NCBI GenBank assembly: GCA_035544015.1
Contig: DATKIP010000012.1
Span: 99,483 to 163,482 of the forward strand
Source of the DNA: Candidatus Saccharimonadia bacterium
Lineage (GTDB): Bacteria; Patescibacteriota; Saccharimonadia; UBA4664
Direction: 5' to 3'
DNA length: 64,000 nt
Shown: piece by piece, positions 8,048-63,939 of the stretch
Layout: every line of letters begins with the position of its first letter
Numbering within the stretch: position 1 is the first letter of the stretch
Notes under the pieces: model-generated
What the model was told of the DNA's origin: nothing
What the model saw: the letters and a program-made list of their open reading frames with translations, nothing else
The model's database searches: none
Program-made: the position numbers and the translations under genes

Positions 8048-8062
8048 CACTCACGCCCAGCA

Positions 8063-20231: not shown

Positions 20232-20250
20232 TTGGTGGAGCTGCGGGGAA
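20232..20250. repeat. 19-bp direct repeat identical to the 3' end of the tmRNA gene (displaced att-like copy)
   Basis: TTGGTGGAGCTGCGGGGAA at 20232-20250 is identical to 21069-21087 (the ssrA 3' terminus). Confidence 0.65.
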
Positions 20251-20390
20251 AATCTTGGCACTTGATCATGGAGATGCCGCAGCGTGGCGGTACGCACTGG
20301 GGCCGAAGTTTGAACGATTCAAGTTCACCCACCAAAGATTGCTGTGATAAAAACAGCGAATATTGAGGAATATGCTGCCAAATCTAGTCC

Positions 20391-21007
20391 CTAAGCGACA
20401 AGAAGTCTGGCTGCCTTCTCTATGGAAGCATGGAAGTTACCCGACTCTATCTCAATAACCGGAAAGCCATATTTTCGCGCCTCGTCTGCGTAGAACTTGT
20501 TCCATAGCTGATTGAATGAGGCATAGAGTCGAATTGTTTCTTCATCATATTTGCGAAGCCAGTCATTTGGATTTTTACGAGCATGAGCAAGAATATCTTC
20601 AGTCTGATCAGCAAGGTTAGCAATAAACACCGACTTAAACTCAAAATCTACCTTGGAGAGCTGCTCTGGCAGTATGGCAACCCCTTCTACAATCGCATCC
20701 TTTCCGTCGCGCTGATAATAACCAACGAAATCGAGTACCGACTTCCAGGTTTCTTCGGCTTCTCCCAGCTCATGACCTAGTGCGGCCTGCGGATTATTCT
20801 TTAAGGCGTCGATGTGCTTTTCTGAGCCAAATGCACCACGCTGCACTTTATGAAGATGGGATTTATTTCAGGTGTTGATACGCCTCTCGCAACGGCCCTA
20901 ATTGCATCCGTTGATGCAGCGAGCATTGGCCTCTCTCTCAAGAGAGCATGGATAATCGTAGTCTTGCCCGTTCGGGGAGCACCGCCAATAAAATAAATCT
21001 GTGACAT
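20391..21007 (-). pseudogene. frameshifted P-loop NTPase/kinase pseudogene
   Basis: The Walker A fragment (GGAPRTGKTT, 20801-21007) and the C-terminal 151-aa fragment (20391-20846) are on the same strand in different frames, with the frameshift near 20850-20870. Confidence 0.6.
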
Positions 21008-24992: not shown

Positions 24993-25041
24993 GACGCGAT
25001 TATATCAAGTCAGATACCACTTATGATAGAGTGGGGTCATT

Positions 25042-38135: not shown

Positions 38136-38537
38136 TTATGCAACTAACCGCACCAGATGGGGCAAAGCCTTTGCCAATTTCTTATCGTATGTAAGCAATG
38201 GCCCGGTTCCATTCAGTTCCGCATAAACCGCCAGCGCAATGTCGATGAACGACACCGCCTTATGATGAACATATACCGGCATAACTTGGGATATCAGGAG
38301 CCGATTACAGGCAATTTGCTCAATCCTCGTAAGCTCGGTGATGAGATCAGCAATTAACCGCCGATCGAATCCATAGGCCGACCCCTGCAAAATCCACACA
38401 CACTCAAACAACACCACATCCTCAACCGTAAATTCACTCCTGCGGCCCTTCGCTACCATCGCCACCGTTGCCGGCGACTGGGCCGGATGATCCTCGAGCA
38501 ACAGCCGCAACACCAGGTTGGTATCAAGTGCGCTCAC
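38136..38537 (-). CDS. vapC: type II toxin VapC (PIN domain)
   Basis: ALDTNLVLRLL N-terminal motif and FIDIALAVYA. 4-nt overlap with the antitoxin. Confidence 0.8.
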   Translation of the reverse strand: MSALDTNLVLRLLLEDHPAQSPATVAMVAKGRRSEFTVEDVVLFECVWILQGSAYGFDRRLIADLITELTRIEQIACNRLLISQVMPVYVHHKAVSFIDIALAVYAELNGTGPLLTYDKKLAKALPHLVRLVA

Positions 38538-38833
38538 TCCGACTCTCGCATTCGCTCTACTCGATAGGCCGCCGCATCGCGATGAGCCTGTAAACGAACC
38601 TCCCTCAGTTCATCATCGGTCTGCGGGAAGGTTCGGTTGGTGCGCTGCATATGCTCTCGCACGCGAGCGTGGAGCGCCGCCAACTCCTTATGCCAATCCG
38701 GCTGCTCAATCGTAGCGATATCCCCGGACAAATCAAAACTCACCGCCTGTCCCGGCTTGAGCCCCAGCTTACGCCGAATCTCGACCGGAATGGTCACCTG
38801 CCCCTTGCTAGTCATGGTAGACGAATACTTCAT
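38534..38833 (-). CDS. vapB: AbrB/MazE/SpoVT-family antitoxin (VapB)
   Basis: TSKGQVTIPVEIRRKLGLKPGQ swapped-hairpin motif. Confidence 0.8.
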   Translation of the reverse strand: MKYSSTMTSKGQVTIPVEIRRKLGLKPGQAVSFDLSGDIATIEQPDWHKELAALHARVREHMQRTNRTFPQTDDELREVRLQAHRDAAAYRVERMRESE

Positions 38834-38878
38834 GGTATTACCCTACCAAAAGGTAATACCACCCGTCAAGGTATTACC

Positions 38879-39310
38879 TCAGCGCCCGGTATGCCCGTAC
38901 CCCTGCTCCCCGCGCTCGGTCTCATCGTGCGCCTCCACCTCGACCCACTCCACGCGCTCCACCGGCTTCACGAGCACCTGCGCCACTCGATCACCGTCCT
39001 CGATCGTATACGGCTCGTCCGATAGATTCACCATGATGATCTTGAGCTCACCCCGGTAATCCGAATCAATCGTCCCCGGCGCGTTCACCGTCGTCACCCC
39101 GTGCTTGGCAGCCAGCCCACTACGCGGCCGCACCTGCATCTCGTAGCCCTCCGGCACCGCCACAAACAGCCCCGTAGGCACCAGCGCCCGGCCCAGCGGC
39201 CCCAGCGTCACCGGCGCCTCCAGGTTGGCCCGCACATCGAGCGCCGCCGCTCCCGCCGTATGATACTCCGGCAGCGGATGCCGGCTCTTATTGATAATCC
39301 GAACTTTCAT
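38879..39310 (-). CDS. dut: dUTP diphosphatase
   Basis: Trimeric dUTPase motifs (AGAAALD, RSGLAAKHG, GTIDSDYRGE). Confidence 0.85.
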   Translation of the reverse strand: MKVRIINKSRHPLPEYHTAGAAALDVRANLEAPVTLGPLGRALVPTGLFVAVPEGYEMQVRPRSGLAAKHGVTTVNAPGTIDSDYRGELKIIMVNLSDEPYTIEDGDRVAQVLVKPVERVEWVEVEAHDETERGEQGYGHTGR

Positions 39311-39599: not shown

Positions 39600-39842
39600 T
39601 TGGAGCACATCATGCTGCTTACGGATATCAAGATCGCGTTCCTCCTGGTCCTCGGCCTCAGCATGGTAGCCGCCGTAGCCTGGGGAACCATACGCGTGAG
39701 GCAGATGTTCCGACAAGGCGAACTCATCCTGGAACTGTCACAGTTCCTCGTGACCAGGAGCAACGGCTGGCTCGACCAAACGATGATCCCGCGGTACAAA
39801 CGCCGCACCGTCATCCTCTTCACCTACCGCTCGACCTACCTA
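39600..39842 (+). pseudogene. N-terminal fragment (81 codons) of a gene split by the IS630 insertion. Its C-terminal 59 codons resume at 40951..41127
   Basis: The ORF stop TAG is the first 3 nt of the IS left inverted repeat. Removing 39843..40950 restores a continuous 140-codon ORF. Confidence 0.55.
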
Positions 39843-40948
39843 TAGCCCTCTCAAAACAAAACCGTCATAAACCATATTTAAACAGCCTTCCGGCAATATA
39901 GCCGGTAAAGGCCTTTTTTGTGTCTTCAAAGGTAGAACGCTGAATATTGGCTACAGCTTGCTTGGTGGTGTTCCAAACATGCTCAATTGGATTGTTGTCA
40001 GGGGCATAGGGCGGCATGGGGATGAGGTGGACCCGCTCCAAGAGTTGGCCTTTGGCTAAGGCTGTTCGAATCGCACGACCTTTGTGGAAGGCGGCATTGT
40101 CCCAGATAATGGCAATCTTCTTGTCTGGGTGGTTTTTCAAGAAGAGCTCGAATGCCTTCAACACCTCTTCCTGGTTTTGCCAGGGCATTTCATACACTTC
40201 GCAGGTGAACGATTTCTGGTTCAAGAACCCGATATAGCTCTGAGCCTCTTTGTCCCGGTCGACTTTGACAATGGTGCGCTTGCCCTTTTTGAGCCAAGCC
40301 CGGCGGGTAATAGCTTCTTGTTCTATCCGGACTTCGTCAACGGCAAACACTTCCCACTCCTTGCTGGTAAGCAGCGGGGCAACTTCAGCATGGATTTCTC
40401 GCATCCGGGCCTCAATCGTAGCCACATTGCGCCTGAGGTCAAAGGTATCCGGGTACTTAAACGACAGATTACTAAACCGTAGGAGGAAATGATATGACTG
40501 CGGAGATTCATACACAATCTCAAACTTGGTCTGGAGGTAGGTTTTGAGCTGGGGTACATCCCAGAAGGCCTGAGGCAAGCCAAAGTCGGAGGGTGGAGAG
40601 CTGAGCGCCTGCTTGACCTCTTGGCGCTGGTCGCGGGTTAGAGGACTGGCGTTGTCATTGCCGGCGTGGCCGGTGAATATCATGCTGAGGCGACTAGTTC
40701 GCCAGGCATTGAGCCAGCTCCCCACGGTTCGTGAGGAGCGGTCTTGGATGTCGCCAATGTCAGCGGATGACATCCCTTTATTCGCCATGAGTACGGCCCC
40801 AGCTTTATATCGTATGAGGATGAGTGGGGAGGTTTTGGCATATTCCTTTAAAAGAATCTTTTCTTCGTTGGTGATATTTGTTTTACGCATTTGCAATTAA
40901 GCGTAACAAAATCTCGAAATAAATGCAGGTTTTGTTTTGAGGGGGCTA
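39843..40948 (-). mobile_element. IS630-family (Tc1/mariner-like) insertion sequence, 1106 bp, with a TA target-site duplication
   Basis: 21-bp terminal inverted repeats TAGCCCTCTCAAAACAAAACC (left) and TAGCCCCCTCAAAACAAAACC (right, reverse complement), 20/21 identical. Flanking TA at 39841-42 and 40949-50. One transposase ORF. Confidence 0.85.
39865..40896 (-). CDS. IS630-family DDE transposase (HTH plus DDE_3)
   Basis: IAIIWDNAAFHKG and PPYAPDNNPIEHVW DDE motifs. Full length, 343 aa. Confidence 0.85.
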   Translation of the reverse strand: MQMRKTNITNEEKILLKEYAKTSPLILIRYKAGAVLMANKGMSSADIGDIQDRSSRTVGSWLNAWRTSRLSMIFTGHAGNDNASPLTRDQRQEVKQALSSPPSDFGLPQAFWDVPQLKTYLQTKFEIVYESPQSYHFLLRFSNLSFKYPDTFDLRRNVATIEARMREIHAEVAPLLTSKEWEVFAVDEVRIEQEAITRRAWLKKGKRTIVKVDRDKEAQSYIGFLNQKSFTCEVYEMPWQNQEEVLKAFELFLKNHPDKKIAIIWDNAAFHKGRAIRTALAKGQLLERVHLIPMPPYAPDNNPIEHVWNTTKQAVANIQRSTFEDTKKAFTGYIAGRLFKYGL

Positions 40949-40950
40949 TA

Positions 40951-42203: not shown

Positions 42204-42818
42204 TCAGGAGCCAACCCGCGTCAGCACCACCACCTGCGTTTCGGCCGGCGCCTCCTTGGCATTCACGCGCAGCTTGCTCTCCGGCTCGGGGTTAGCCCCC
42301 ATTTCCTTCAAAAACTTCTCCAGCCCCGCCTGCGGGACGGGATATGTTGTAATTCCGTCATCATAATGCACCGGCACCACGTAGCCAGGCTCGAGCTGCG
42401 CCACCACATCGGCCGCCCCCTCGGCGTCGAGCGTGAGGCCGCCCCCACCCACCGGCACCACCAGCACGTCCACCTGGCCGAGATTCTCAACCTGGTCCTC
42501 GTCGAGCTTGCCCGAGATATTACCAACCACCACCACGTTCACCCCATCAACCAGCACGCTAAAAGCCGTGCCGCGGTGGCCGTCTTCGTCAATGTGCAGC
42601 CGAGCCGGAGCGCCGGTGATCATTGCCCCCTTCACCTCGTACTCACCGGGGCCGTCGATCACCATCGCCCCCGCGACCTCGAGCCATGTTCCGCCCTCGG
42701 CCGGCCCAGTCACCACCACCACGTCAGCCTTGGCCGAACCCACTGGGTCGCTCACCACATTGAGGTTGCGCCCCGACAGCTTCACACTTCCTGCCCCCAG
42801 ATACGTAATATCCATCAT
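42204..42818 (-). CDS. MBL-fold metallo-hydrolase
   Basis: Beta-lactamase-like fold (HxHxDH-like region VVVTGPAEGG...). Confidence 0.65.
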   Translation of the reverse strand: MMDITYLGAGSVKLSGRNLNVVSDPVGSAKADVVVVTGPAEGGTWLEVAGAMVIDGPGEYEVKGAMITGAPARLHIDEDGHRGTAFSVLVDGVNVVVVGNISGKLDEDQVENLGQVDVLVVPVGGGGLTLDAEGAADVVAQLEPGYVVPVHYDDGITTYPVPQAGLEKFLKEMGANPEPESKLRVNAKEAPAETQVVVLTRVGS

Positions 42819-42830
42819 CCGTCTCCCGTC

Positions 42831-43517
42831 TTAATTCCTGATAATATCGCGTCCGCGACCCGGCGTAGCCGCTGTCACAATCGCCACCGGCACATACTCG
42901 CCAAACGTCACGTCGCTATGCGCCAACGGTTTTTCCTGGCCGTCGATGATCACAATTTTGCGCGCCTCAAGCACCGTCGTGATAAACCGGTCATTGAGGC
43001 TCAACCGGTATTGGTATTCGTCGGGTGTGAGCGCCGAATAATTGAGCTCGCGGCCCATCTCTTTCTCCATCTCCGCCACCACTTTTGCCAACCGCGCCTT
43101 GTTGATATCCCCCACCACGAAAATGTCCACGTTGGTGCGGCTGTCCCGCGCAAACGACCCCGTCAGAAACGCAAAGCTTATCGACCCCGTCGATCGCAAC
43201 CGCTTGATGATCTTGTCTTCTTCGCGCGTCTCCTTCACCACCGGGTCGCTCGATTTGGCTGGCATACTCGTAAAGATACTCCGCAGCTGCTCATAATATT
43301 CATACTTCGGATTCACTTCATAGTACAGCCGATTGTTCGAGCCGTCCGAAGACACCAACCCCACCGACAACAAATTCGCCAGCTCCCGCCGCACGGAATT
43401 AATTTGTTCATCGATTTTGCGCGTAATTTCGCGCACATAAAACGGCCGACCTGGATTATTAAAAAACAGGCTGAGCAGCTTCACACGCGTCTTCGAACCA
43501 AACAATTGTTCGACCAT
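42831..43517 (-). CDS. winged-helix DNA-binding plus nucleotidyltransferase-domain protein (start refined to MVEQLFG)
   Basis: N-terminal HTH (VREITRKIDEQINSVRRELANL) and a C-terminal nucleotidyltransferase-like region (GSFARDSRTNVDIFVVGD). Confidence 0.5.
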   Translation of the reverse strand: MVEQLFGSKTRVKLLSLFFNNPGRPFYVREITRKIDEQINSVRRELANLLSVGLVSSDGSNNRLYYEVNPKYEYYEQLRSIFTSMPAKSSDPVVKETREEDKIIKRLRSTGSISFAFLTGSFARDSRTNVDIFVVGDINKARLAKVVAEMEKEMGRELNYSALTPDEYQYRLSLNDRFITTVLEARKIVIIDGQEKPLAHSDVTFGEYVPVAIVTAATPGRGRDIIRN

Positions 43518-43649
43518 ACCTGAACACTTTCCGCCTCGGTTACCCCTGTATTGCCACATAGTATAGCAAATTAGCTCAACGATATCACCAGACGCTCGAA
43601 GGGGCCCGGCACGCAAGTGCGCACCGAGCCCCATGGCCCCAAAAAGGGC

Positions 43650-44150
43650 CTACGTAGAAGTAGGCGTTGTGGCTACGGCCTGGAGCGTTTTGATCAACCG
43701 CCCCGCGACGGGCTCGCGATCAGGCAGACCGTCGCACAATGCCTGGTCGAAGTAGGACTTGGACACGACCCCCTCGTCACCCGGCTGCTGGTAGGTAGTC
43801 TCGACGCGACAAACCGGATCTCTGTCCGAGCCCCCCACTACATCCCGCTTCACCGATGTACCCCAGGAAGAGTAATCCAGCTGCAGCGTATCAACGCCGT
43901 AAAGGACATACCCGTCCATCGGTGTAGTACAGAAACTCCCGGCCGGGTAATAGACGCTCCAGTGCTCGGCGTGGCCATCCGGCTTGAGCCAAAATCGGCA
44001 CACACCGTCGTGCACCTTGGGATCACGCATCTCAGCCCGAACCACAGTGCCGGTCTCATGGACCTTGATTCCCGACCCGCAAGCCGCCGCAGCTGGAGCC
44101 AGCGCCACGATCAACAGCCCGACCACGCCCAGACGATGTACTCGACGCAT
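43650..44150 (-). CDS. putative lipoprotein
   Basis: Signal peptide with lipobox LAPAAAACGS. Confidence 0.45.
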   Translation of the reverse strand: MRRVHRLGVVGLLIVALAPAAAACGSGIKVHETGTVVRAEMRDPKVHDGVCRFWLKPDGHAEHWSVYYPAGSFCTTPMDGYVLYGVDTLQLDYSSWGTSVKRDVVGGSDRDPVCRVETTYQQPGDEGVVSKSYFDQALCDGLPDREPVAGRLIKTLQAVATTPTST

Positions 44151-44230
44151 ACACCTTACCTTTTCTCTCAGGTGCCCGCAGGCACTCAGTGCTTACGCGC
44201 CTCGCATGATATAAACAAAAACAAGTTCGT

Positions 44231-45664
44231 TCAAGCGCGAACAATCGAGACCAGCAACGCCACGGCCGCAGCCGCCATCACTCCGAAACAAATCCACAGC
44301 CCCGCCAGCGACAACCAGCCGCTGCGATGCTCGCCCATCACGTCCGCCCGCCGCGACACCCGCGCAATCAGGTAAATCAGGGGCACCGCCGCCAACCCAT
44401 TAAACACCGCCGTAAATATCAGCGCCTTGATCGGATCGAGTCCAATGAAGTTAAATACCAACCCCGCCAGCGTCCCAAAAATAATCACCAAATAAAACTG
44501 CCGCGCCTGCTTAAACTTCCGAAACAACCCTTCGTTCCAATTGAATGTCTCGCTCAGCGCATACGACGACGATCCCGCCAGCACCGGCACACTCATGAGC
44601 CCGATGCCAATCACCCCCACCGCAAACACCACCTTCGCGATGTAGCCCGCGTTCGGGAAACCGTCCACGAGCGGCTCCAATGCTTTGGCCGCATCGGCCG
44701 CCGAGTCAATATTCGTGACCCCATGCGCCCCCAGCACCACCGCCCCCACCACAATCACAAACCACGCCGTCACGTTCGAAAACAGCATCCCCAACGCCGT
44801 ATCAATCCGCAGCCGCCGCAAGTACGGCGCCGTCAGCTTGGGCACCCCACCACGCTGCGCCAGCCGGTGCGCCGCAATCTCGTCCTCTACCACCTCGCTC
44901 GTCTGCCAAAAGAAGAGATACGGCGAAATCGTCGTGCCAAAAATCGCCACCACGATGTAGAGGTACTCCGGGCTCCACACAATCCGCGGCGTCACCGTTG
45001 CCCGCAGCACTTCCTGCCACGGCACGTTCACCAAAAACGCCGTCACCGGATACGCAAACAGCGCCACGGCCAGCCACTTCAAAATCCGCACGTAGGTCTT
45101 GTACGCCACCAGCACTTCCAGCACCAACATCACCACCGCAAAAATCATCGCCAGCAGCGCAAACGGCAGCGGCACCAGCAGCTGCATACTCGCCGCCATG
45201 GCGCCAATGTCGGAGCCGATGTTGAGCGTATTGGCCACCACCACCAGCCCCACCACCGGGTACAGCACGTATGCCGGGTAATGCTCGCGAATCACCGCCG
45301 CCAAGCCCTTGCCCGTCACCGCGCCGATCCGCATGCAAGCCTCTTGCACCGCCGTCATTAGCGGGTAGGTAAACAGCATCGTCCAAGGCAGCGCAAAGCC
45401 AAATTGCGCCCCCGCCTGCGAATACGTCGCCAAACCCGACGGGTCGTCGTCGGCCGCTCCCGTCACGATCCCTGGGCCCAAAATGCGCAAAAATCGGCTA
45501 AATCCACGCTGACGCCGGCGCCGCTTCGAGCCGGCCGGCGCCTTGGTAGCTTCGAGCTCCGCCTCAGTAATCGCCTCGTCGGGCAAGAGAATCATAGTGC
45601 CTACAAGCATAACCACAATCCGACCCGCCCGTCCAGTAGAATGAGACAACAGCCGCCAAACCAC
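44231..45664 (-). CDS. mntH: Nramp-family divalent metal (Mn2+/Fe2+) transporter (true start probably internal, ~45595-45610)
   Basis: GPGIVTGAADDDPSGLATYSQAGA Nramp signature and 11-12 TMs. Confidence 0.85.
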   Translation of the reverse strand: MVWRLLSHSTGRAGRIVVMLVGTMILLPDEAITEAELEATKAPAGSKRRRRQRGFSRFLRILGPGIVTGAADDDPSGLATYSQAGAQFGFALPWTMLFTYPLMTAVQEACMRIGAVTGKGLAAVIREHYPAYVLYPVVGLVVVANTLNIGSDIGAMAASMQLLVPLPFALLAMIFAVVMLVLEVLVAYKTYVRILKWLAVALFAYPVTAFLVNVPWQEVLRATVTPRIVWSPEYLYIVVAIFGTTISPYLFFWQTSEVVEDEIAAHRLAQRGGVPKLTAPYLRRLRIDTALGMLFSNVTAWFVIVVGAVVLGAHGVTNIDSAADAAKALEPLVDGFPNAGYIAKVVFAVGVIGIGLMSVPVLAGSSSYALSETFNWNEGLFRKFKQARQFYLVIIFGTLAGLVFNFIGLDPIKALIFTAVFNGLAAVPLIYLIARVSRRADVMGEHRSGWLSLAGLWICFGVMAAAAVALLVSIVRA

Positions 45665-45767
45665 TATTCCATTTCTCGGAATAGTGCCAAAATGGTCGAT
45701 GATTTATCCCTTTATAAAGCCATAAAAATTTACCTGCCTTTGCACTATTCCAGAAAATGGAATAGTG
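45662..45767. promoter_or_regulatory. two copies of the palindromic operator-like site CACTATTCC-N7-GGAATAGTG upstream of mntH
   Basis: Copy 1 at 45662-45686 and copy 2 at 45743-45767. Each has perfect 9-bp arms. They lie 50-170 bp upstream of the likely mntH start. Confidence 0.5.
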
Positions 45768-45800
45768 CCAACACCCACGCAGGTTCTTCGAGACAACAGC

Positions 45801-46520
45801 CTACCGCGGCCGTCCCGCGGCCACCCCCGCCGCCACGTGCTCCAGACGATCATCGAGCGGCTCCAGCTCCGTCACCCCATGCCGCCGCCGCAACGCCTCC
45901 AGCAGCAAATGATCCGCCAGCCCCGGATTCTTCGGCAGCACCGGCCCGTGCAAATACGTGCCCACAGCCGCCTGCGTCATCGCCCCTTCGCGCCGACTGC
46001 GCACATCGTTCCCATAGCCCTTCACGATCCGCCCTAGCGGCGCCTGGCCCTTATCGAGCCTCGTAGCTCCCGAATGATTCTCAAACCCCACCAGCACCCC
46101 GTAGTCGCTCTGCGATACCACATTACCAATCATCCGCACGTTACCCGCCCGCGTCGTGGCGCCAAACACCCCGATTCCCGGAATCCGGCTCCCATCGTGC
46201 GTCACAAATTCTCGCCCAAACAGCTGGTACAAGCCACAAATCACCAACATCGGCACCCCAGCCGCCGCCATCTCCCGCAGCGCCTCGCCGTGCCGCGTGA
46301 GGTCCGCGCCCACCACCAGCTGACCCGAATCCTGGCCACCGCCGCCAAACACCAAGTCCACAGCCCCCCAGTCCACCGTTTCCCCAATTTCCACCGGCAC
46401 CACCCGCGCTCCAAACCCCCGCCACTCCAGCCGCTTCACGAGCGTAATAATATTGCCCATATCGCCATAAATATTCATCTCTCGCGGGTAGAGATGCGCG
46501 ATCGTGATATGCCCTCTCAT
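45801..46520 (-). CDS. gatD: lipid II isoglutaminyl synthase glutaminase subunit GatD (CobQ-like GATase)
   Basis: GATase1-like region with the catalytic Cys context (LVICGLYQL). Immediately follows murT. Confidence 0.8.
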   Translation of the reverse strand: MRGHITIAHLYPREMNIYGDMGNIITLVKRLEWRGFGARVVPVEIGETVDWGAVDLVFGGGGQDSGQLVVGADLTRHGEALREMAAAGVPMLVICGLYQLFGREFVTHDGSRIPGIGVFGATTRAGNVRMIGNVVSQSDYGVLVGFENHSGATRLDKGQAPLGRIVKGYGNDVRSRREGAMTQAAVGTYLHGPVLPKNPGLADHLLLEALRRRHGVTELEPLDDRLEHVAAGVAAGRPR

Positions 46521-47890
46521 CGCGGCATCGCCTTCATCTGCGTACGCCGCGCCAGCAACTTGCGCACCTCAAGCATGGCCGTATACGTAGGCAAGATGTA
46601 CGCCGTTTCACCCGCCGGGGTCGCCGCCACGAGCGCCTCAATGCCCTCGCCCACGCTCGCCGCCGTCTGCGACTCCACCCCGGCGTAATGCAGCCGCACC
46701 GCCATGTCGGCGCCGCGCACCCCCGCCGTAAACGCTCGTGTATCGTGGCCCCCCAGGGCCTCAATCGGCACATCCCACAGCCACGATACGTCGCGGCCAT
46801 CCGCCGCCAAATCGTTGATCACAAACAACACCCGCACCGCCTCGCGGCCAATCACAAACGTTTGCAGCACCTGTGCAAACCCCGCCGGGTTCTTGATGAG
46901 CAGCAAACACAGCGTCCGGCCATCGATCTCCACCCGCTCCACCCGGCCAAACGCCGCGCGGGTTGCCGCCAGCGCCGCCTGCATCACCGGCATCTCCACC
47001 CCATATCCCACACCCAAACTCACGGCCGCCAGCGCGTTGTAGAGATTGTACGTTCCCGGCAGCGGAAACCGCAGCTCCGTCCGCTTACCCCGCACCGCCA
47101 CCACAAACCGACTACCGTCACGATCAGCTTCCTCCACGTTCGTCACCGCCACCGTCGGCGCCGGCCGCCCAAAATCTCCCTTGGGACAGCGATAATGCCC
47201 CACATGCCCATAAAACACCCGGCTAAATTCCAGCCGCGAGTGGCACACCGGGCACCGATCCGAATCCGTAGCCGTTTGATGCTCGCCCACCGCACTCACC
47301 GGCATGCCCTCAATCCCAAAATAATGCACCTGCTCAGGGCTGCGGGCATACGTGGCCAAGCTCGCCACCAACGGATCATCGGCGTTCAAATAAACTTGGG
47401 CATCGGTACCTGCAATCCCCTCGCCAATCAGCGCGGCAGTCGTATCTAGCTCGCCGTAACGGTCGAGCTGATCCCGAAACAAATTCGTCACCACGATATG
47501 CGTCGGCCGCACCTCCGGCGCCACCCGCCGCAAGCTCGCCTCATCCACCTCAAACAGCCCCACGGTCGCGCGCACCCGACCGCCCATATCGGCCGCCCGT
47601 ATCAACGCCGACGTCACGCCGCGTTTCAGGTTCGACCCACTGCTGTTCGTCACCACCACCAGCCCCATCGCCTCCAAAAACTCTGCGATAAGCTTGGTCG
47701 TGGTCGTTTTGCCATTCGTACCCGTCACCAAAATCACCCCGCCGCTCAAACCAGCCGCCAGCTTGGCCGCCAAATGCGGGTCCAACCGTTCCGCCACCAA
47801 CCCCGGCAATGCCCCGCCACCGCCGCGTCCAAGCCCTCGGCTCAAAGCCGCCGCCACCTTCGTAACAAGCAATGTCAGCGTGACGTTCAT
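46517..47890 (-). CDS. murT: lipid II isoglutaminyl synthase subunit MurT (Mur-ligase family)
   Basis: Mur ligase P-loop ILVTGTNGKTTTT, Cys-rich insert CPVCHSRL...RCPKGDFGRP, and DUF1727-like C-terminus. Confidence 0.85.
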   Translation of the reverse strand: MNVTLTLLVTKVAAALSRGLGRGGGGALPGLVAERLDPHLAAKLAAGLSGGVILVTGTNGKTTTTKLIAEFLEAMGLVVVTNSSGSNLKRGVTSALIRAADMGGRVRATVGLFEVDEASLRRVAPEVRPTHIVVTNLFRDQLDRYGELDTTAALIGEGIAGTDAQVYLNADDPLVASLATYARSPEQVHYFGIEGMPVSAVGEHQTATDSDRCPVCHSRLEFSRVFYGHVGHYRCPKGDFGRPAPTVAVTNVEEADRDGSRFVVAVRGKRTELRFPLPGTYNLYNALAAVSLGVGYGVEMPVMQAALAATRAAFGRVERVEIDGRTLCLLLIKNPAGFAQVLQTFVIGREAVRVLFVINDLAADGRDVSWLWDVPIEALGGHDTRAFTAGVRGADMAVRLHYAGVESQTAASVGEGIEALVAATPAGETAYILPTYTAMLEVRKLLARRTQMKAMPR

Positions 47891-47893
47891 GGC

Positions 47894-48814
47894 TCAAGTA
47901 TAGCGCAGTCCAAAATCCGCCACCAATTGCTCGGCTTCGGCCGCCGACTGTACCCACCGAATCCCCTCATGCCGTTTAAACCACGTCACCTGTTTCTTGT
48001 AGAGCGCCATGTCGCCGCGCACGAAATCAGCCGTCGCTTGCTCGAGCGTTTTGGTCCCCAAAACGTACCCCTTAAATGCTCGATACCCAATCACCTCCAG
48101 CGCCGCACTTTCCCAGCCATACATCTCACCAATGTCTTCAACTTCACGAATAAAGCCTTCCTCAAGCATTTTTTTCACTCTTTGCTCCACCCGATGTTGA
48201 ACAATTTCTTTGTTCAAGATCGTCCCCAACACCAATGCCTCGGGCACCATCTCGGTCCGCCGCGTTCGCCGCTCACCAGCCGTTTCAATCGCCCGAATCA
48301 CCCGCCGGCGGTTGGTCCGCTCCACGGTTTCGTAGGCCTCCGGATCCTCCGCCGCCAGCAGTTCCAGCAAATCTTCATCGCCCATCGCCTCCAATCGCGC
48401 CCGCAAAGCCGGCTCAGATTCTGACGGAAATTCATAATCAAACAACACTGCGTCCACATACAATCCGCTCCCACCCACCAACAGCGGCAGCCTACCCCGG
48501 CTCGCAATATCAGCCATTGCCCCCACCGCCAGCTGCTTAAACGCCGCCGCACTCAGTCGCTCGCCGGGATCAATCACATCCAGCATATGATGCCGCACCC
48601 GCGCCTGCTCCGCCGCCGTCGGTTTGGCCGTGCCAATATCCATGCCGCGGTAGAGCGTCCGCGAATCGGCGCATACAATCTCGCCCCCAAATCGCTCAGC
48701 CAAATGCAAGCTCAGCGCCGTCTTGCCCGTAGCTGTCGGCCCTACCACGGCCACAAATTTCGCTCGCACGCCGCTCATCATACTGCAGCCCCACCAATAC
48801 CCGGCGGCCACCAC
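47894..48814 (-). CDS. miaA: tRNA dimethylallyltransferase
   Basis: P-loop VVGPTATGKTALS and CADSRTLYRGMDIGTAKP. Confidence 0.85.
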   Translation of the reverse strand: MVAAGYWWGCSMMSGVRAKFVAVVGPTATGKTALSLHLAERFGGEIVCADSRTLYRGMDIGTAKPTAAEQARVRHHMLDVIDPGERLSAAAFKQLAVGAMADIASRGRLPLLVGGSGLYVDAVLFDYEFPSESEPALRARLEAMGDEDLLELLAAEDPEAYETVERTNRRRVIRAIETAGERRTRRTEMVPEALVLGTILNKEIVQHRVEQRVKKMLEEGFIREVEDIGEMYGWESAALEVIGYRAFKGYVLGTKTLEQATADFVRGDMALYKKQVTWFKRHEGIRWVQSAAEAEQLVADFGLRYT

Positions 48815-49107
48815 AGCAAAGCCTCAATATCCACCACATAATCCGCATCCACCACCACACCCTCGGCCCGCAGCCGCGCCGCGTGCTCGCTGCGGCCACC
48901 GTGAAACCCACTCGCCAACCCACCGCGCCTATTTACTACCCGCTGCCACGGCAGCTCCTCGGGGCCGTAGTGCGCCAGTCCACCCACAATCCGAGCCGCC
49001 CGCGGGCTGCCGCACACCGCCGCAATCTGGCCATACGTCATCACGCGGCCAGCCGGAATCAACGCCACCAACTCGTACACCCGCTGAGCAAAAGTATCGT
49101 CCGCCAC
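48778..49107 (-). CDS. alkyltransferase-like (ATL) protein of the MGMT family. The catalytic Cys is replaced by Trp
   Basis: MGMT DNA-binding-domain fold with PWQRVV in place of the PCHRV active site. Confidence 0.6.
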   Translation of the reverse strand: MADDTFAQRVYELVALIPAGRVMTYGQIAAVCGSPRAARIVGGLAHYGPEELPWQRVVNRRGGLASGFHGGRSEHAARLRAEGVVVDADYVVDIEALLWWPPGIGGAAV

Positions 49108-49110
49108 CGC

Positions 49111-49731
49111 TCAAATCCCCAGATACCGATGCAGCGCCGCCACTCGCTCCCGCCACGCTCCGCTCTGCCGAATCCTACCCACTACCTCGATAATCCGTTC
49201 CGCTTCCGGCACATTCGTGCCCAGCTTCAACGCCTCACGCTTCCAAGCCTCAGGTTCGTATGCGCCGCCAAGTATCCAGATCATGTGCTGGTTCCATTGC
49301 CCCACCACCGCGGCCCCGCCCGCAGACGCCACCACCGCCAGCTCCTGCGCATTTGCCGGCGCCGCAAACATGGCCGCCAAGCGCTGCCGCTCAGGTCCCT
49401 CCAAGGCATAATCAGCCTGCTCCGCCGCCTTCACACCCCGCCATTCCACCACATCCGTCTCCGGCAACAAACCCAAGCCCTGTTCGCGAAAAAATTGATT
49501 CCACGCCTCATCCAAATAGCTATGCAACAACATGCCCACGCGCCAGGCGTCCTCCTCATGCCGCACATCGTCCATAGTTACCCCCTCCCGGTGCGTCAAA
49601 GACCGGGGCAAACCGGCCAGCAGCCGAATGTCCGGAAACGCCGAGCCCCGCACCACCGCCGCCTCATCCAAATCCGGATGATCACGTACGTAGGCCTGCG
49701 CATACACCATATGAATCAACGGCGCCGGCAT
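49111..49731 (-). CDS. hypothetical protein
   Basis: Plausible ORF. No recognisable family. Confidence 0.35.
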   Translation of the reverse strand: MPAPLIHMVYAQAYVRDHPDLDEAAVVRGSAFPDIRLLAGLPRSLTHREGVTMDDVRHEEDAWRVGMLLHSYLDEAWNQFFREQGLGLLPETDVVEWRGVKAAEQADYALEGPERQRLAAMFAAPANAQELAVVASAGGAAVVGQWNQHMIWILGGAYEPEAWKREALKLGTNVPEAERIIEVVGRIRQSGAWRERVAALHRYLGI

Positions 49732-49733
49732 CG

Positions 49734-51584
49734 CTACAGGCGGCTCGCGGCCGCGCGCTCCGCCGCCTCGGCCGCCACCGCCTCGGCGAATTCAACTACC
49801 CCAATTTCGCCCTCAAACTCACCGTGCCCCCTGCGCAACCGCGGGCTAATGCGGCCACTTTCGCGTTCTTTCTCACCCACCACCACCGTATACGGCACCT
49901 TCGCGAGCCCAGCCGCCCGTATTTTCTTACCCACACTCTCGGCGCCAGCGTCAATTCCCACCCGCAGACCCTTGGCCGCAAAGTCCCGTCGCAGCTGCTC
50001 CGTGTATTCCAAAATTTCCGGCGTCTCGTTGATCGGCGCCAGCCGCACCTGTTCCGGCGCCAGCCATGCCGGAAACGCTCCGGCCGTCTGCTCCAGCAAG
50101 AGCACCATAAACCGCTCGAGCGAACCCGCAATCGCTGCGTGCAGCATCACGATGCGCTCCCGCTCACCAGCCTCGTTGGTCACCACCAGGTCAAAACCTT
50201 CGGGCTGACCCATGTCGATCTGGATCGTTGCTGCCTGAAATTCGCGTCCAAACACGTCCCGTCCCATGAAGTCGATCTTCGGCCCATAGAAAGCCGCCTC
50301 GCCCAAACCATCCATATACTCCACGCCACGCGCCTCTATCACCGCCTTCATCTGGCGCTCGGTGCGCTCCCACGTCTCGGCCGTACCCAAATATTCATCC
50401 ATTTTATCCGGATCATGCCGACTAAACCGTACCTTCAGCTCAATCCCGAACTTCGCGTTAAACGCCTGCACGATATCCCAAATTTTACCCAATTCCGATT
50501 CAATCTGAGTCGTCCGGCAAAACACGTGCGCATCGTCTTGCGTAATCGACCGCACCCGACTGAGCCCCGAGAGCTCGCCGCTCTGCTCATCGCGGTACAC
50601 CATCGTGGTCTCACGGTAGCGGATCGGCAAATCCCGATAGCTCCGCGGCTGCGAAGCGTAAATTTGCGTGTGGTGCGGGCAGTTCATCGGCTTCATCGCA
50701 AACTCATGCCCCTCCCGAGTTTTAATTTTGAACAACTCCTCCGAAAACTTCTTCCAATGCCCGCTCTTGATGTACAAATCCTTCTTGGTAATATGCGGAA
50801 TCGTTACCGCCTGGTATCCGCCGCCAATCGTCTCGCGCAGCTCCTGCACAAAAGCGTTGATCTGCTCGCGAATCAGCGTTCCCCGCGGCGTAAACAGCGG
50901 CAATCCCGGTCCCACCAGGTCCGAAAACACAAACAAGTCCAACTCTTTGCCCAACTTACGATGATCGCGCTTGGCCGCCTCTTCGAGCATGTCCAAATGC
51001 GCCAAAAGCTCGGGCTTTGTTGTAAATCCTACACCATAGATGCGCTGCATTTGTGCATTCTTCTCGTCGCCGCGCCAGTACGCTCCAGATACACGCATCA
51101 ATTTAAACGCTCCCACCTGGCCCGTTGAAGCCACATGCGGCCCCCGGCACAAATCAGTAAACGGACCGTCCGTGTAGATGCCCACATCATCCACTTTGAC
51201 ACCTTCACCCACCCCCATTTGCGATCGATCAATTTCTTTCGCCACCGTGGTACCGTGCTCCTTAAGGTCGCCCAGCAGGTCCACTTTGTAGGCTTGGCCC
51301 TTATCGCCAAAATATTTGAGCGCTTCTTCGAGCTTCATCGTGGACTGCTCAAATGGATAGTCTGCCTTCACGACCTCGCGCATTTTGCCCTCGATTGCGC
51401 CCAAATCCTCCACCCCAATCGGCTTTGGTAGATCCACATCATAGTAGAACCCGTTCTCCACCACCGGCCCCACGCCAAACTTAGCCTCGGGGTACAGCTC
51501 CTGGATCGCCGTGGCCATAATGTGCGCCAATGAATGCCGCATCGCAAATACCTGCTGGTCTTGATCGGACTGGGGCTTGCTCAT
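49734..51584 (-). CDS. thrS: threonine--tRNA ligase (lacks the N-terminal TGS domain)
   Basis: Class II aaRS motifs and HRDLPIRYRETTMVYRDEQSG. Begins at the RHSLAHIM second-additional-domain region. Strong SD (AAGGAG) upstream. Confidence 0.9.
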   Translation of the reverse strand: MSKPQSDQDQQVFAMRHSLAHIMATAIQELYPEAKFGVGPVVENGFYYDVDLPKPIGVEDLGAIEGKMREVVKADYPFEQSTMKLEEALKYFGDKGQAYKVDLLGDLKEHGTTVAKEIDRSQMGVGEGVKVDDVGIYTDGPFTDLCRGPHVASTGQVGAFKLMRVSGAYWRGDEKNAQMQRIYGVGFTTKPELLAHLDMLEEAAKRDHRKLGKELDLFVFSDLVGPGLPLFTPRGTLIREQINAFVQELRETIGGGYQAVTIPHITKKDLYIKSGHWKKFSEELFKIKTREGHEFAMKPMNCPHHTQIYASQPRSYRDLPIRYRETTMVYRDEQSGELSGLSRVRSITQDDAHVFCRTTQIESELGKIWDIVQAFNAKFGIELKVRFSRHDPDKMDEYLGTAETWERTERQMKAVIEARGVEYMDGLGEAAFYGPKIDFMGRDVFGREFQAATIQIDMGQPEGFDLVVTNEAGERERIVMLHAAIAGSLERFMVLLLEQTAGAFPAWLAPEQVRLAPINETPEILEYTEQLRRDFAAKGLRVGIDAGAESVGKKIRAAGLAKVPYTVVVGEKERESGRISPRLRRGHGEFEGEIGVVEFAEAVAAEAAERAAASRL

Positions 51585-51786
51585 AAAAAATGCTCCTTAT
51601 ACCAAAACAACGCGCCATTCCTGGCGCGTCTGGACCCTCGCGGGCGGTTCCACCAGACTTCCTCGGCTCGTAAGCCAAGACTCTTTGGTCGCCGACGTTC
51701 GCCACCGGCAGCGGAGCTCGCGGGGTGGTGAAGCCCGGTCAGCGCCCTATGTACCTGGCGGGATTATAGCGCACATTCGCACGCAA

Positions 51787-51818
51787 CAAAAGCGCCCCGG
51801 AATACGGGGCGCTTTTTT
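51787..51818. terminator. hairpin terminator (AAAAGCGCCCCG-GAAT-ACGGGGCGCTTTTTT)
   Basis: Perfect stem flanked by A-tracts and T-tracts. Sits between the small ORF and thrS. Confidence 0.5.
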
Positions 51819-51831
51819 CGAAAAAATCGAA

Positions 51832-52056
51832 CTATGGTTGCTGAACAGGAGCCTCGGGCGAGGAAGGAACCGGCGCTTCACCCTCGGCCGGCGGCTGGGG
51901 CGCTTCTTCGGGCTGCTCGGGAGCCACCGGGGCATCCAAGGGAGCCGGTGCTGCGGCGGGGTCAGAAACCGTTTCCGGACCAGCCGGTGCTACCGGTGCT
52001 TCTGCAGGAGCCACTGGCGGCTGAGGGGTAACTTCATCATTCTTTTCGGTATCCAT
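51832..52056 (-). CDS. small Pro/Ala-rich low-complexity protein
   Basis: Strong SD AAGGAG 8 nt upstream of the ATG. 74 aa of PAxP-type repeats. Confidence 0.35.
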   Translation of the reverse strand: MDTEKNDEVTPQPPVAPAEAPVAPAGPETVSDPAAAPAPLDAPVAPEQPEEAPQPPAEGEAPVPSSPEAPVQQP

Positions 52057-55911: not shown

Positions 55912-56125
55912 ACCCATCGGCCTAGCCGCCCACCGAGAGCGCATCTCGGATCACAGCCTCTAGCGAGAAGGCCCCGGCCTCGCGCCGGAGGCTCTTCTCG
56001 ACCTTATGGCCCAACCACCACAATTCTACGACGCCCGCCCCAGGTCATCACGCTAATGCTTGCAGCATGCCCCACGCACACGCTACGCTATTTGTACTAT
56101 CTGCCAACATAAGAGGTTTGGGAGT

Positions 56126-57250
56126 ATGCTCAGTCAGCAAATCGCCGACAAAATCTGCGCCAAGGTCAGCGCGCTGGTCAATCAAGACTTGCGTCTCACC
56201 GACGCGGCCGGCCAGCCCCTCTCCCAAACCTCCGCCCTCAAACCCGAGCCAGTAAACCTCACCGAGGTTGCTTGGGCCATCCCATTCTCATATGGCGGCA
56301 ACGTCGTAGGCTACATCGCCCTCGAAACCGAAATGCCCAACCACACCGAAATCGCCCCGCTCATTCGCTCCATTGCCGAGCTCGTGATGCACCAATCGCT
56401 CGTGCTTGAGCAAATCCCGCGCCAAGACGAGCGCCTCGACAAATTCATCTACGACCTCCTCAACCAACCCCAGCCCGAATGGAGCCTCCTCGCCGCCGAG
56501 GCCCGCCTGTTCGACATCGAGCTCGATCGACCCCGCATCGCTATCGTCATTCAAATCGACGACCCCAGCCTCACCTCGCGATTCCAAGACCCCTCCGGCG
56601 ACCGCGAAGTCCGCCTCACCCGCTACAAATTTGGCATCACCCGCGCCCTCAATTCGTTCTACACCTCTAGCCGCGAAAACGTGGTGAGCTACCTCGGCGG
56701 CACCTCGTTTTGCATCCTCAAAGATATCCTGCCCACCGGCGACTCCGACCTCGACGCCGGTCTCGAAAACTTCAAAAAAAGCCTCGGCGTCATCTATGGC
56801 ATTCTCAAAAGCGAACTCAAACCCCCCACCACCGTCGGGGTCGGCAATTACCACCCCGGCCTCGAGGGCTTGCGTCAAAGTTTCCACGAGGCCACCTCCG
56901 CCATCGAGCTGGGCGCCCAAACCTGGGACGTCGACCGCATGTACCACATCGACGATTTCGGCGTGGTTGCCCCCCTCTTGTCCGGTGTCGACGAAAATAA
57001 TATCTACTTCTCGCGTGAACTCCTCGACCGCGTCGGCGAAAACAACGAAATCATCCAGACCCTCGAGGCCTTCTTTAGCTTCGACATGTCGCTCACCCGC
57101 ACCGCCGAGACCCTCAAAATCCACCGCAACACCCTCGTCTACCGCCTCGACCGCATCACCGAAACCCTCGGCCTCGATCCACGCGTATTCGACGACGCCA
57201 TTCAGATCAAGCTGGCGATTCTCTACAGCCGCTTTGTGGAGCGTGGCTAA
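56126..57250 (+). CDS. CdaR/PucR-family transcriptional regulator (sugar-diacid-regulator-like). Start refined to ATG 56126
   Basis: C-terminal PucR HTH LTRTAETLKIHRNTLVYRLDRITETLGLDPRVFDD. Confidence 0.75.
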   Translation: MLSQQIADKICAKVSALVNQDLRLTDAAGQPLSQTSALKPEPVNLTEVAWAIPFSYGGNVVGYIALETEMPNHTEIAPLIRSIAELVMHQSLVLEQIPRQDERLDKFIYDLLNQPQPEWSLLAAEARLFDIELDRPRIAIVIQIDDPSLTSRFQDPSGDREVRLTRYKFGITRALNSFYTSSRENVVSYLGGTSFCILKDILPTGDSDLDAGLENFKKSLGVIYGILKSELKPPTTVGVGNYHPGLEGLRQSFHEATSAIELGAQTWDVDRMYHIDDFGVVAPLLSGVDENNIYFSRELLDRVGENNEIIQTLEAFFSFDMSLTRTAETLKIHRNTLVYRLDRITETLGLDPRVFDDAIQIKLAILYSRFVERG

Positions 57251-58431
57251 TGCAGCTCAACACCGCTCTCGCCCGCCAAATCTCCGACAAGGCCAACCAA
57301 GTGCTCAAACGCGACCTGCTCATCGCCGACCTGTCGGGCCAGATCCTCGCCGGTGGTCCCGGCCGCGCCTTTGTCTCCGAGGCGCTTTCGGCCGCCCAAA
57401 CCGGCCGGCCCACCACCTCCGAATTCGAGGAGCGGCAAACCAAATGGTGGCCGTTCGTCTACGACGAGCGCACCATCGCCGTGTTTGGCCTGCCGCTCGA
57501 CACCGGCCCCATCACCCAAGAGGCCACCACCCTGCTCCAGGGACTCGCCGAGGTCATCGTATACCAGCACTTCCTGCTCGATAAAATCCAGTCGGCCGAA
57601 CGCGTGCGCGCCGATTTTGTCCGCACCCTCCTCACTGCCCCCACCATCGACGCCGCCGACATTCATCGCCAGGCCGACATCCTCCAGCTCAACGTGCGCG
57701 GCGCCCAAGCCGTCATCCTCATCCACCTCGACGGTTTCGAGACCTCAGTGCGGTCCAAGCACCCCCATCTGTCGTCAGAAGAACAACAACTTCAAATCGA
57801 CACCGCCGCCGAAGCCATCAACATCCTCGTCCGCGACGGCTTCAAAAACCTTCAAGAAAACCTCATGGCGTATCTCGGCGAAGATCGCTTCGTTCTTCTC
57901 AAAGGTCTCACCGGCGAAACCCTCACCACCCTCAACACCATCCGCCAAATGACCGAGAAAGCCCAAGCCACCTTCGCGATGCTCGGCGCCGCCAAACTCG
58001 ACCAACCCATCACCCTCGGCATCGGCCAATACTATCCCGATCTGGGCGGCCTCCGCAAAAGCTACCAGGATGCCAAGCTGGCGCTCGAAGTTGGCTCCAA
58101 GGTCTGGGGTACCGGCCGCGTCTACCACATCAAACAGGTCGGCATGTTCATCACCCTCGCCGCCACCAGCCAAGACCGCAAAGCCGAGCTCGCCCACCAA
58201 ATTCTGTCACCCCTGTTGCGCGACGAACAACTCTTCAAGACCGTCCAAGCCTTCCTGAGCTGCGGCCTCAACCTCACCGACGCCGCCGAAAAGCTCCACA
58301 TCCACCGCAACACCCTCATTTACCGCCTCGACAAAACCAAGAAGCTCATCAATCTCGATCCGCGCCATTTCGACGACGCCCTGCAGATCAAATTGGGCCT
58401 CATGTTCTACCAGGACCAATCCGTCGCCTAA
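57250..58431 (+). CDS. CdaR/PucR-family transcriptional regulator (tandem paralog; TAATG stop/start overlap)
   Basis: LTDAAEKLHIHRNTLIYRLDKTKKLINLDPRHFDD. The N-terminus is collinear with the upstream paralog. Confidence 0.75.
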   Translation: MQLNTALARQISDKANQVLKRDLLIADLSGQILAGGPGRAFVSEALSAAQTGRPTTSEFEERQTKWWPFVYDERTIAVFGLPLDTGPITQEATTLLQGLAEVIVYQHFLLDKIQSAERVRADFVRTLLTAPTIDAADIHRQADILQLNVRGAQAVILIHLDGFETSVRSKHPHLSSEEQQLQIDTAAEAINILVRDGFKNLQENLMAYLGEDRFVLLKGLTGETLTTLNTIRQMTEKAQATFAMLGAAKLDQPITLGIGQYYPDLGGLRKSYQDAKLALEVGSKVWGTGRVYHIKQVGMFITLAATSQDRKAELAHQILSPLLRDEQLFKTVQAFLSCGLNLTDAAEKLHIHRNTLIYRLDKTKKLINLDPRHFDDALQIKLGLMFYQDQSVA

Positions 58432-63495: not shown

Positions 63496-63939
63496 ATGAA
63501 ATGCCCGTTTTGCCGATCGAACCAAACCGAAGTCTACAACACCCGCACCACCAAATTCGGCACCCAGCTCTGGCGCCGGCGTCGCTGCCAGACCTGCCAC
63601 GAAGCCTTCACGACGTACGAAGCCGCCGACCTAGGATTCCTTCAAATCCGTGCCCGCAACGCCTCACACAGCCCCTACAGCCGCGCCAAGCTATACTCCG
63701 GCATCGCCGCCGCCTTTGAGACGCAGCCGGCCCCGCCCACCACCGTCGACGCCCTCACCGACACCGTCGAAAGCAAGCTTCTAGACCTAAAAAGCCCCGT
63801 GATCACCACGGAGCAAATTAGCGCTACCATTCTCACTACCCTGAGGCATTACGACACGCCGGCGTTTCTGCGGTATCTAGCCTCACACGCCGAGCTTCGC
63901 TCCAACGCCGAGCTCAAACGCCAGCTCAAAAACTACTAG
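63496..63939 (+). CDS. nrdR: transcriptional repressor NrdR (zinc ribbon plus ATP-cone)
   Basis: MKCPFCRSNQTEVYNTR...RRRRCQTCHEAFTTYE. Confidence 0.85.
   Translation: MKCPFCRSNQTEVYNTRTTKFGTQLWRRRRCQTCHEAFTTYEAADLGFLQIRARNASHSPYSRAKLYSGIAAAFETQPAPPTTVDALTDTVESKLLDLKSPVITTEQISATILTTLRHYDTPAFLRYLASHAELRSNAELKRQLKNY

Follow-up and report, generated by a model that had tools for sequence, protein, structure and literature searches.

A lineage-specific module of inverted palindromic units upstream of an Nramp-family transporter gene in a Saccharimonadia genome

Two perfect palindromes stand between gatD and a gene for an Nramp-family (SLC11) transporter in a Candidatus Saccharimonadia genome, and we propose, with about an even chance of being right, that they are the inverted ends of a lineage-specific dispersed repeat, of the type of REP doublets forming hairpins (REPINs) or of Correia elements and other miniature inverted-repeat transposable elements (MITEs), rather than an inherited operator. 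The two palindromic units (W1, proximal to the transporter gene, and W2, distal to it) lie in a 64,000-nucleotide stretch of contig DATKIP010000012.1 (assembly GCA_035544015.1), which we call the window. We favour a repeat because the units sit in what alignment identifies as an insertion, a second copy of the same module precedes a pseudogene, homology between the two copies ends at the units, each copy is predicted to fold into one long hairpin, and the native promoter of the transporter gene is left untouched. A preliminary description of this DNA had taken the palindromes for the dual operator of a metal-responsive repressor upstream of an Mn/Fe transporter gene, mntH. The palindromes proved non-random and do lie upstream of an Nramp-family gene; the reading as an inherited metal-repressor operator did not hold up, given their position in an insertion clear of the promoter, their lack of conservation, their copying as a module and the NRMT-like character of the gene.

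Results

W1 and W2 share the motif CACTATTCC-N7-GGAATAGTG, with perfect 9-bp arms and a start-to-start distance of 81 bp (Table 1), and the motif scan and shuffles bear out their first description as two perfect-arm copies at that distance. Even with up to three mismatches allowed, these two remained the only matches in the window, dinucleotide-preserving shuffles (n = 100) gave a mean of 0.01 matches and never reached two, with a similar outcome for the 16-base core of the motif, and W2 extends to a perfect 11-N5-11 palindrome (45742–45768; its 14-nt arms match at 93%). The palindromes are therefore real and non-random.

By alignment, gene maps and composition, the pair sits in a lineage-specific insertion. 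The spacer between gatD and the transporter gene is 205 nt long in the window and 68 and 56 nt long in its two nearest relatives (protein identity 89% and 87%), and alignment with these relatives (L081 and L082) left a single gap, opposite a 135-bp block of the window whose GC content is about 0.40, against about 0.62 for the genome. Orthologous spacers aligned to the window only outside this block. The block lies between the two copies of a perfect 12-bp direct repeat, and when it and one repeat (together 147 bp) are taken out, the spacer is back to its ancestral length. The block is no single-assembler artefact, since a Logan assembly produced independently (L134) matches window positions 42517–51890 at 100% identity, inserted block included. 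For a wider comparison, upstream regions were drawn from 80 metagenomic orthologous loci and the two closest relatives, and the motif was found in none of these more than 80 orthologous Nramp loci at up to 4–5 mismatches; conservation upstream of mntH orthologues, which the preliminary description had put forward as a check, is thus absent throughout, the 89% and 87% relatives included. A covariance model of the module (R1) likewise found no further match in 597 kb (the window and related loci). A second window-specific insertion flanks the transporter gene, a 166-amino-acid open reading frame (ORF; 43650–44150, minus strand) with a signal-peptide- or lipobox-like N-terminus and without a family match; in relatives, the transporter gene is followed directly by a gene for a winged helix-turn-helix (wHTH) protein.

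The module recurs elsewhere in the same genome. A JGI contig (L127) is 100% identical to the window over positions 1–11537, and is therefore from the same genome, and runs 9.4 kb past the left end of the window. It carries a second pair of units (TACTATTCCATTTTTTGGAATGGTT at contig position 19145 and AACTATTCCAAAAAGTGGAATAGTA at 19224, 79 bp apart), with 0–1 mismatch in the core ACTATTCCA-N5-TGGAATAGT, so that the scan beyond the window, suggested at the outset, did return the motif. The centres of this pair stand 149 and 70 bp 5′ of ATG 19306, the leaderless start of an HD-domain gene (19306–19895) that is unrelated to the transporter gene and is frameshifted near codon 40 (53 + 140 amino acids, against about 196 in orthologues) in the JGI and Logan assemblies alike. 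The HD–MarR–RmuC gene order is kept in relatives, where the HD gene begins 15–42 nt after its upstream neighbour, and the module was absent from the HD-gene orthologues of these relatives. Ahead of the second module stand a tRNA-Pro gene and the remnants of a further small insertion: between 18940 and 19125 of the contig, the 3′ end and terminator tail of tRNA-Pro(cgg) are partly duplicated 146–164 nt downstream, around an AT-rich block (CCCGACCATTC / CCCTGCCATTC; GGGCTTTTT twice), in what looks like the scar of that insertion.

Local alignment of the two loci (window 45770–45663 against contig 19142–19250) runs from unit to unit and ends at the outer unit edges, in either orientation. Within a module each unit is the inverted counterpart of the other, down to the asymmetric pyrimidine-rich centre, with complementarity over 29 nt at 86% in the window and over 27 nt at 93% in the JGI contig. 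Oriented by their pyrimidine-rich centres, the four units read CACTATTCCATTTTCTGGAATAGTG, CACTATTCCATTTCTCGGAATAGTG, TACTATTCCATTTTTTGGAATGGTT and TACTATTCCACTTTTTGGAATAGTT, an alignment that defines the core given above, and such sites were all-or-none: the four units have 0–1 core mismatches, and the background has at least 5, which is the chance level. The spacers of the two modules are weakly but significantly similar in both orientations (21–33 of 2,000 shuffles reach the score; p of about 0.01–0.02). Between loci the arms have diverged less than the spacer has (31/36 against 31/57 identical positions; Fisher p = 0.0015), which argues for the arms as functional recognition or pairing elements. 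Because spacer and orientation are shared along with the units, as one module of about 107 nt, we read the module as a copied repeat and not as a set of independently selected operators; it appears recent and is probably functional at some level.

Several of these features would also suit a portable dual operator or upstream activating site, the main alternative, which we consider somewhat unlikely. A dimer of a putative lineage-specific transcription factor would occupy each 25-bp unit, and the two dimers, 79–81 bp apart, would cooperate in controlling the leaderless promoter downstream, from about −70 and about −150, by class-I-type activation, looping or a block to read-in transcription. 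The regulon would comprise two genes or more, among them the NRMT-like transporter gene and an HD-domain hydrolase operon; a metal-responsive repressor would be a special case. Perfect two-fold symmetry, arms better kept than the spacer, an A/T-rich centre typical of dimer-bent sites, and a pair geometry (81 against 79 bp) and start-codon distance that are similar at two loci, with both pairs 5′ of genes, all speak for such a site. Against it, the units are not conserved in any relative at either locus, no graded weaker sites accompany them, one of the two targets (the HD gene) is a pseudogene, and spacer and unit orientation are inherited as a block, which operators would not need and which indicates a copy-paste origin.

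As single-stranded DNA, both modules are predicted to fold into one long hairpin, unit on unit, with a stem of about 27 bp in each (z = −8.1 for the window and −7.0 for the JGI contig). All 24 consensus pairs can form in both copies, and the changes at paired positions comprise one compensatory change (C–G to U–A) and five one-sided changes that still allow G–U on the gene-sense strand. At both loci the sense RNA is predicted to be more stable than the antisense RNA (−41.8 against −39.4 and −45.1 against −35.8 kcal/mol). These pair-preserving changes are suggestive of a kept structure, in a model derived from the same two sequences. Searches for a riboswitch or other known RNA gave nothing credible at positions 44000–47000 (Rfam, E-values up to 10), and at gathering thresholds Rfam matched only RNase P, tmRNA and tRNAs in the whole window. 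A scan for an intrinsic terminator of gatD found none, and the module was rejected in that role, its stems being AT-rich and without a T-tail, whereas the terminator-like hairpins of this genome have GC-rich stems flanked by A/T runs.

The inverted orientation of the units at both loci also raises the question of an inverton, in which the units would be core sites of a site-specific recombinase and the segment of about 56 bp between them would flip, altering transcription into the transporter gene. Like known invertons (fimS and the invertible promoters of Bacteroides and Clostridioides), the module is a short segment with inverted-repeat flanks immediately upstream of a gene; its 9-7-9 architecture and asymmetric pyrimidine-rich centre resemble tyrosine-recombinase core sites, and its spacers offer hexamers of −10 type, TATAAA in the window, where it reads on either strand, and TATAAT in the JGI contig, on the minus strand. 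The crossover centres, however, are not identical (ATTTTCT and ATTTCTC differ at 3 of 7 positions in the window, ATTTTTT and ACTTTTT at 1 of 7 in the JGI contig), 79–81 bp from centre to centre is very short for an inversion, two assemblies per locus contain one orientation only, no clear or conserved internal promoter is present, and a scan of ORFs across the window brought up no recombinase gene. We accordingly regard an inverton as very unlikely.

The position of the units relative to the transporter gene depends on its start codon. Although the longest ORF opens at GTG 45664, within W1, the deposited protein (P0001; 454 amino acids, 100% identity and coverage, annotated as a divalent metal cation transporter of a Candidatus Saccharimonadia metagenome-assembled genome) puts the start at ATG 45595, in agreement with the lengths of homologues (about 452–455 amino acids) and with a promoter 10 nt before this ATG, and the suspicion that the true start lies downstream of the long ORF's was thus well founded. 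With this start, and with the gatD stop at 45801, W1 and W2 are both fully intergenic, so that neither copy lies inside the real coding sequence.

The native −10 hexamer of the transporter gene, TATGCT, is followed by 10 nt and the ATG, a near-leaderless mRNA arrangement, and the corresponding core (T(G/A)GACA, 17–18 nt, TATGCT, 6–10 nt, ATG) is kept in at least 15 orthologous loci; in most orthologous loci the gene is leaderless. The extended −10 type (TGnTAnnnT), 6–10 nt before the ATG, occurs at other genes too and is the dominant promoter type in the genome. Strong examples stand 6–9 nt before the ATG of several genes (among them those at 12245–12273, 24999–25027 and 18807–18835), and, judged from several promoters of the window, leaderless mRNAs appear to be common in this Saccharimonadia genome. 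Neither palindrome overlaps the native core promoter, which lies downstream of both: W1 is centred 79 bp and W2 160 bp 5′ of the ATG, which places them at about −75 and about −156 relative to the inferred transcription start site (TSS). The overlap with the −35, the −10 or the TSS that an operator of the MntR, Fur or DtxR type needs in order to occlude its promoter is therefore missing, a further point against the portable operator.

Each window unit itself contains a sigma-70-like promoter look-alike directed towards the transporter gene (Table 1), and it is conceivable, though extremely unlikely, that the units are two extra tandem promoters (TTGGCA, 16 nt, TG-G-AATAGT) whose palindromy is incidental. 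Both look-alikes belong to the just 11 best such matches in 64 kb, with both strands scanned, and the extended −10 that they carry is the one that dominates in the genome. The copies in the JGI contig, however, lack TTGGCA (they have CTGGTA and TTCTAA) and yet keep the palindrome, the hexamer has A where T is usual at −12, the transporter gene already has a conserved promoter, and perfect dyads of 9–11 bp occurring four times cannot be incidental.

The transporter is, on its residues, NRMT-like and not a canonical MntH. Against the NCBIfam MntH model it scored 109 bits (cut-off 430), and its best solved relative was EleNRMT (E = 9 × 10−51, against 1 × 10−17 for MntH). It has DPSG where canonical Nramps have DPGN, and TTISPY where they have A..MPH; in alignment with EleNRMT the Asp is kept, Gly stands at the canonical Nramp Asn, the Thr that is an extra ligand in EleNRMT is present, Ser occupies the position of the Met that makes canonical Nramps selective for transition metals, and the following His is Tyr. 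EleNRMT is a Mg2+-transporting Nramp relative, and these residue differences are the ones reported for NRMTs (PMC8806188). The assignment to the Nramp family in the preliminary description stands; its naming of the gene as mntH, with the Mn/Fe-type regulation that such a name leads one to expect, is therefore not justified.

No known regulator offered itself for the units. Consensus strings for Fur, IdeR/DtxR, Zur and PerR had best matches in 45560–45830 that were no better than those in shuffled sequence, which upholds the earlier remark that the motif matches no DtxR box, and among known operator boxes more widely (Fur, IdeR, Zur, PerR, NrdR, CIRCE, CueR-type and HAIR) none was matched beyond chance, a result that counts against the portable operator too. 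The unit arms do resemble NrdR half-boxes (CACTAT / ATAGTG), although the distance between them is 11 bp too long, the NrdR box acaCwAtATaTwGtgt had no match in the window at up to 3 mismatches, and a pair of NrdR boxes was rejected because its boxes would be expected about 31–32 bp apart, where the units are 79–81 bp apart. We scanned the proteins of about 60 ORFs, which take in the greater part of the window and some of the extension in the JGI contig, within about 75 kb of sequence read from a genome of about 1 Mb; among them we saw no Fur- or DtxR-family gene, which, together with a transporter that is not MntH, weighs against the metal-repressor version in particular, and no RAYT (Y1/HUH) transposase.

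Regulator genes of other kinds are present nearby, as a portable operator would lead one to expect: MarR, two PucR paralogues, NrdR and a weakly ArsR-like wHTH protein. The MarR gene adjoins the HD gene at the second module (JGI contig 20128–20565). Its own promoter contains a different palindrome, CCCCTAAA-TCG-TTTAGGGG (20083–20110), which fills the spacer between a −35 of TTGACC and a −10 of TATATT and is probably an autoregulatory operator; on account of this difference MarR was rejected as the cognate factor of the units, and the portable operator loses a candidate. The wHTH protein (228 amino acids; 42831–43517, minus strand) combines a winged helix weakly similar to ArsR/SmtB with a weakly matching nucleotidyltransferase (Pol-beta-like) domain after it. 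Its gene lies directly 3′ of the transporter gene in all close relatives, and by eye (not computed) the protein appears near-identical to its L081 and L082 counterparts, above the conservation of the transporter, which it may regulate or assist as a functional partner; as cognate factor of the units it was rejected, being present in all relatives, which are without the motif. The two PucR/CdaR-family paralogues are in tandem (56060–58431), and the NrdR gene (63496–63939) has its own −10, TATAGT, 6 nt before the ATG.

Outside this genome the motif appears to be absent from related bacteria. A search of 185,579 species genomes (a collection that does not include the source genome) returned 9 exact matches, none in Patescibacteria, about the number estimated by chance (596 Gb / 4^18). 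Four of the nine, with the exact 9-N7-9 motif, are in Burkholderiales genomes (L085–L088); in one of these the motif follows a TTGACA box and precedes the start of a gene for a LysR-type regulator, and in others it stands beside azoreductase-like or GST-like genes (judged from N-terminal sequences); these copies may be a LysR-type regulator box unrelated to the Saccharimonadia element. Viral contigs gave 35 matches to the 16-base core, all in unrelated coding sequence, phage and plasmid records gave no match to the motif, and we found nothing relevant in the literature on Saccharibacteria promoters, invertons or regulons.

Two further features of the window have inverted repeats of their own. 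A complete IS630-family insertion sequence (IS; 39841–40950) has a DDE_3 transposase gene (39865–40896, minus strand), 28-nt terminal inverted repeats (TIRs; TATAGCCCYCTCAAAACAAAACC) and TA flanks, and the JGI contig described above breaks off within it, which suggests that the element is multicopy; a MITE derived from this local element was rejected as the origin of the module, its TIR being unrelated to the units. Two overlapping perfect 10-N9-10 palindromes (38833–38879; TGGTATTACC-N9-GGTAATACCA and AGGTAATACC-N9-GGTATTACCT) lie directly upstream of a MazE/AbrB-type antitoxin gene (38534–38833, minus strand) and are probably a toxin–antitoxin operator.

Table 1. Features of the gatD–transporter locus (window coordinates)
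Feature	Position	Strand	Details
Nramp-family (SLC11) transporter gene, NRMT-like	44231–45595	−	454 amino acids; ATG 45595
Native core promoter of the transporter gene	45606–45635	−	−35 TGGACG 45635–45630, 18-nt spacer, −10 TATGCT 45611–45606
Direct repeat, copy 2	45643–45654		identical 12-mer; 147 bp from copy 1
Inserted block, lineage-specific	45655–45789		135 bp; from alignment, relatives' gene maps and composition
Proximal unit W1	45662–45686		CACTATTCC-ATTTCTC-GGAATAGTG (+ strand), full unit CACTATTCCATTTCTCGGAATAGTG; centre 45674
Sigma-70-like promoter look-alike in W1	45663–45690	−	TTGGCA, 16 nt, TG-G-AATAGT; towards the transporter gene
Twin-palindrome module, about 107 nt	45663–45770	−	unit, 56-nt spacer, inverted unit; homologous to JGI contig (L127) 19142–19250
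AT-rich inter-unit spacer	45687–45742		partly palindromic (centre CTTTATAAAG)
Distal unit W2	45743–45767		CACTATTCC-AGAAAAT-GGAATAGTG (+ strand), full unit CACTATTCCAGAAAATGGAATAGTG; centre 45755
Sigma-70-like promoter look-alike in W2	45744–45771	−	TTGGCA, 16 nt, TG-G-AATAGT; towards the transporter gene
Direct repeat, copy 1	45790–45801		GAGACAACAGCC on +, GGCTGTTGTCTC on −; overlaps last base of gatD stop
gatD (GATase_3)	45801–46520	−	last gene of murT–gatD; co-directional, upstream

Discussion

Among characterised elements, REPINs (REP doublets of the type found in bacterial interspersed mosaic elements of Proteobacteria) resemble the module in being two inverted palindromic units around a spacer of tens of nucleotides, about 100–110 nt in all, that form one long hairpin and are extragenic, lineage-specific and better conserved in the units than in the spacer. 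They differ from it in population size (tens to hundreds, against two copies so far, in about 75 kb, for the module), in going with a RAYT, of which none was seen here, in units that are GC-rich imperfect dyads where those of the module are AT-rich perfect dyads, and in their proteobacterial hosts, the host here being a reduced-genome Saccharimonadia of the candidate phyla radiation (CPR). Correia elements (CREE or NEMIS) and similar MITEs share with the module a non-coding length of about 100–150 bp, inverted ends of about 26–29 nt, a position near gene 5′ ends, promoter-like hexamers in the ends, and a long double-stranded RNA stem that the inverted ends would form on transcription. Their sequence is unrelated, however, the ends of the module are each a perfect palindrome, no TA or other target duplication lies directly beside the module (gaps of 22 and 8 nt separate the 12-bp repeat from the units), and a parent IS with the same TIRs did not turn up, those of the IS630-family element in the window being different. 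Dual palindromic operators (marO I/II of MarR, or the boxes of MntR, Fur and DtxR) likewise have two symmetric upstream sites with conserved arms and an A/T-rich centre; the module, in contrast, is clear of the promoter, not conserved in orthologues, block-copied with its spacer and without a match to any known box.

On the repeat reading, the end-units are about 25–27 bp long, with the core ACTATTCCA-N5-TGGAATAGT and a spacer of about 50 nt, in a module of about 107 bp that arrived between gatD and the NRMT-like gene inside the 147-bp block bounded by the 12-bp direct repeat, upstream of the ancestral near-leaderless promoter, which it left intact. The arms may be kept as recognition or pairing elements for propagation, whether by a protein encoded elsewhere or through a single-strand hairpin, and any effect on the transporter gene may be a by-product. 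Transcription of the module could come from read-through of murT–gatD or from the TTGGCA-16-TGGAATAGT look-alikes in each window unit; the transcribed module would then place a stem of about 27 bp in a long 5′ leader, foreign to the native leaderless mRNA, where it would be a plausible RNase III or stability determinant.

Several observations weigh against such a repeat. Copy number is the defining property of a mobile repeat, and only two modules are known, in the roughly 75 kb read; neither a RAYT/Y1 transposase, nor a recombinase, nor a matching autonomous IS was seen among the scanned ORFs. The 12-bp direct repeat keeps a distance of 22 and 8 nt from the units and the copy in the JGI contig has no flanking duplication, an arrangement that departs from a classical target-site duplication. 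Furthermore, both modules lie 5′ of a gene at similar distances from a leaderless ATG (79/160 and 70/149 bp), which fits a regulatory cassette, and better conservation of arms than of spacer would be expected equally for transcription-factor sites. We consider it improbable, on balance, that the module is a portable cis-regulatory cassette of a CPR bacterium, in the form of either a copy-paste dual binding site or a hairpin or invertible leader switch. If it were, the cassette would recruit new genes, here a Mg/Mn-type transporter gene, into a lineage-specific regulon, and a switch would toggle between the native leaderless mRNA and one with a long, structured, RNase-sensitive leader.

In Patescibacteria (CPR), genomes are tiny, regulators are few and hardly any cis-element has been characterised. 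As it stands, the module is a modest, lineage-restricted feature, one that led to two corrections of the annotation (the start codon, and a transporter that is NRMT-like and not MntH) and that advises caution, in that a perfect dyad upstream of a metal transporter gene need not be a metal-repressor operator. As a discrete palindromic module inserted beside conserved leaderless promoters, it provides an example of how CPR genomes gain upstream sequence and, if it binds a regulator or acts as an RNA switch, it would offer a tractable experimental handle on gene control in Saccharimonadia.

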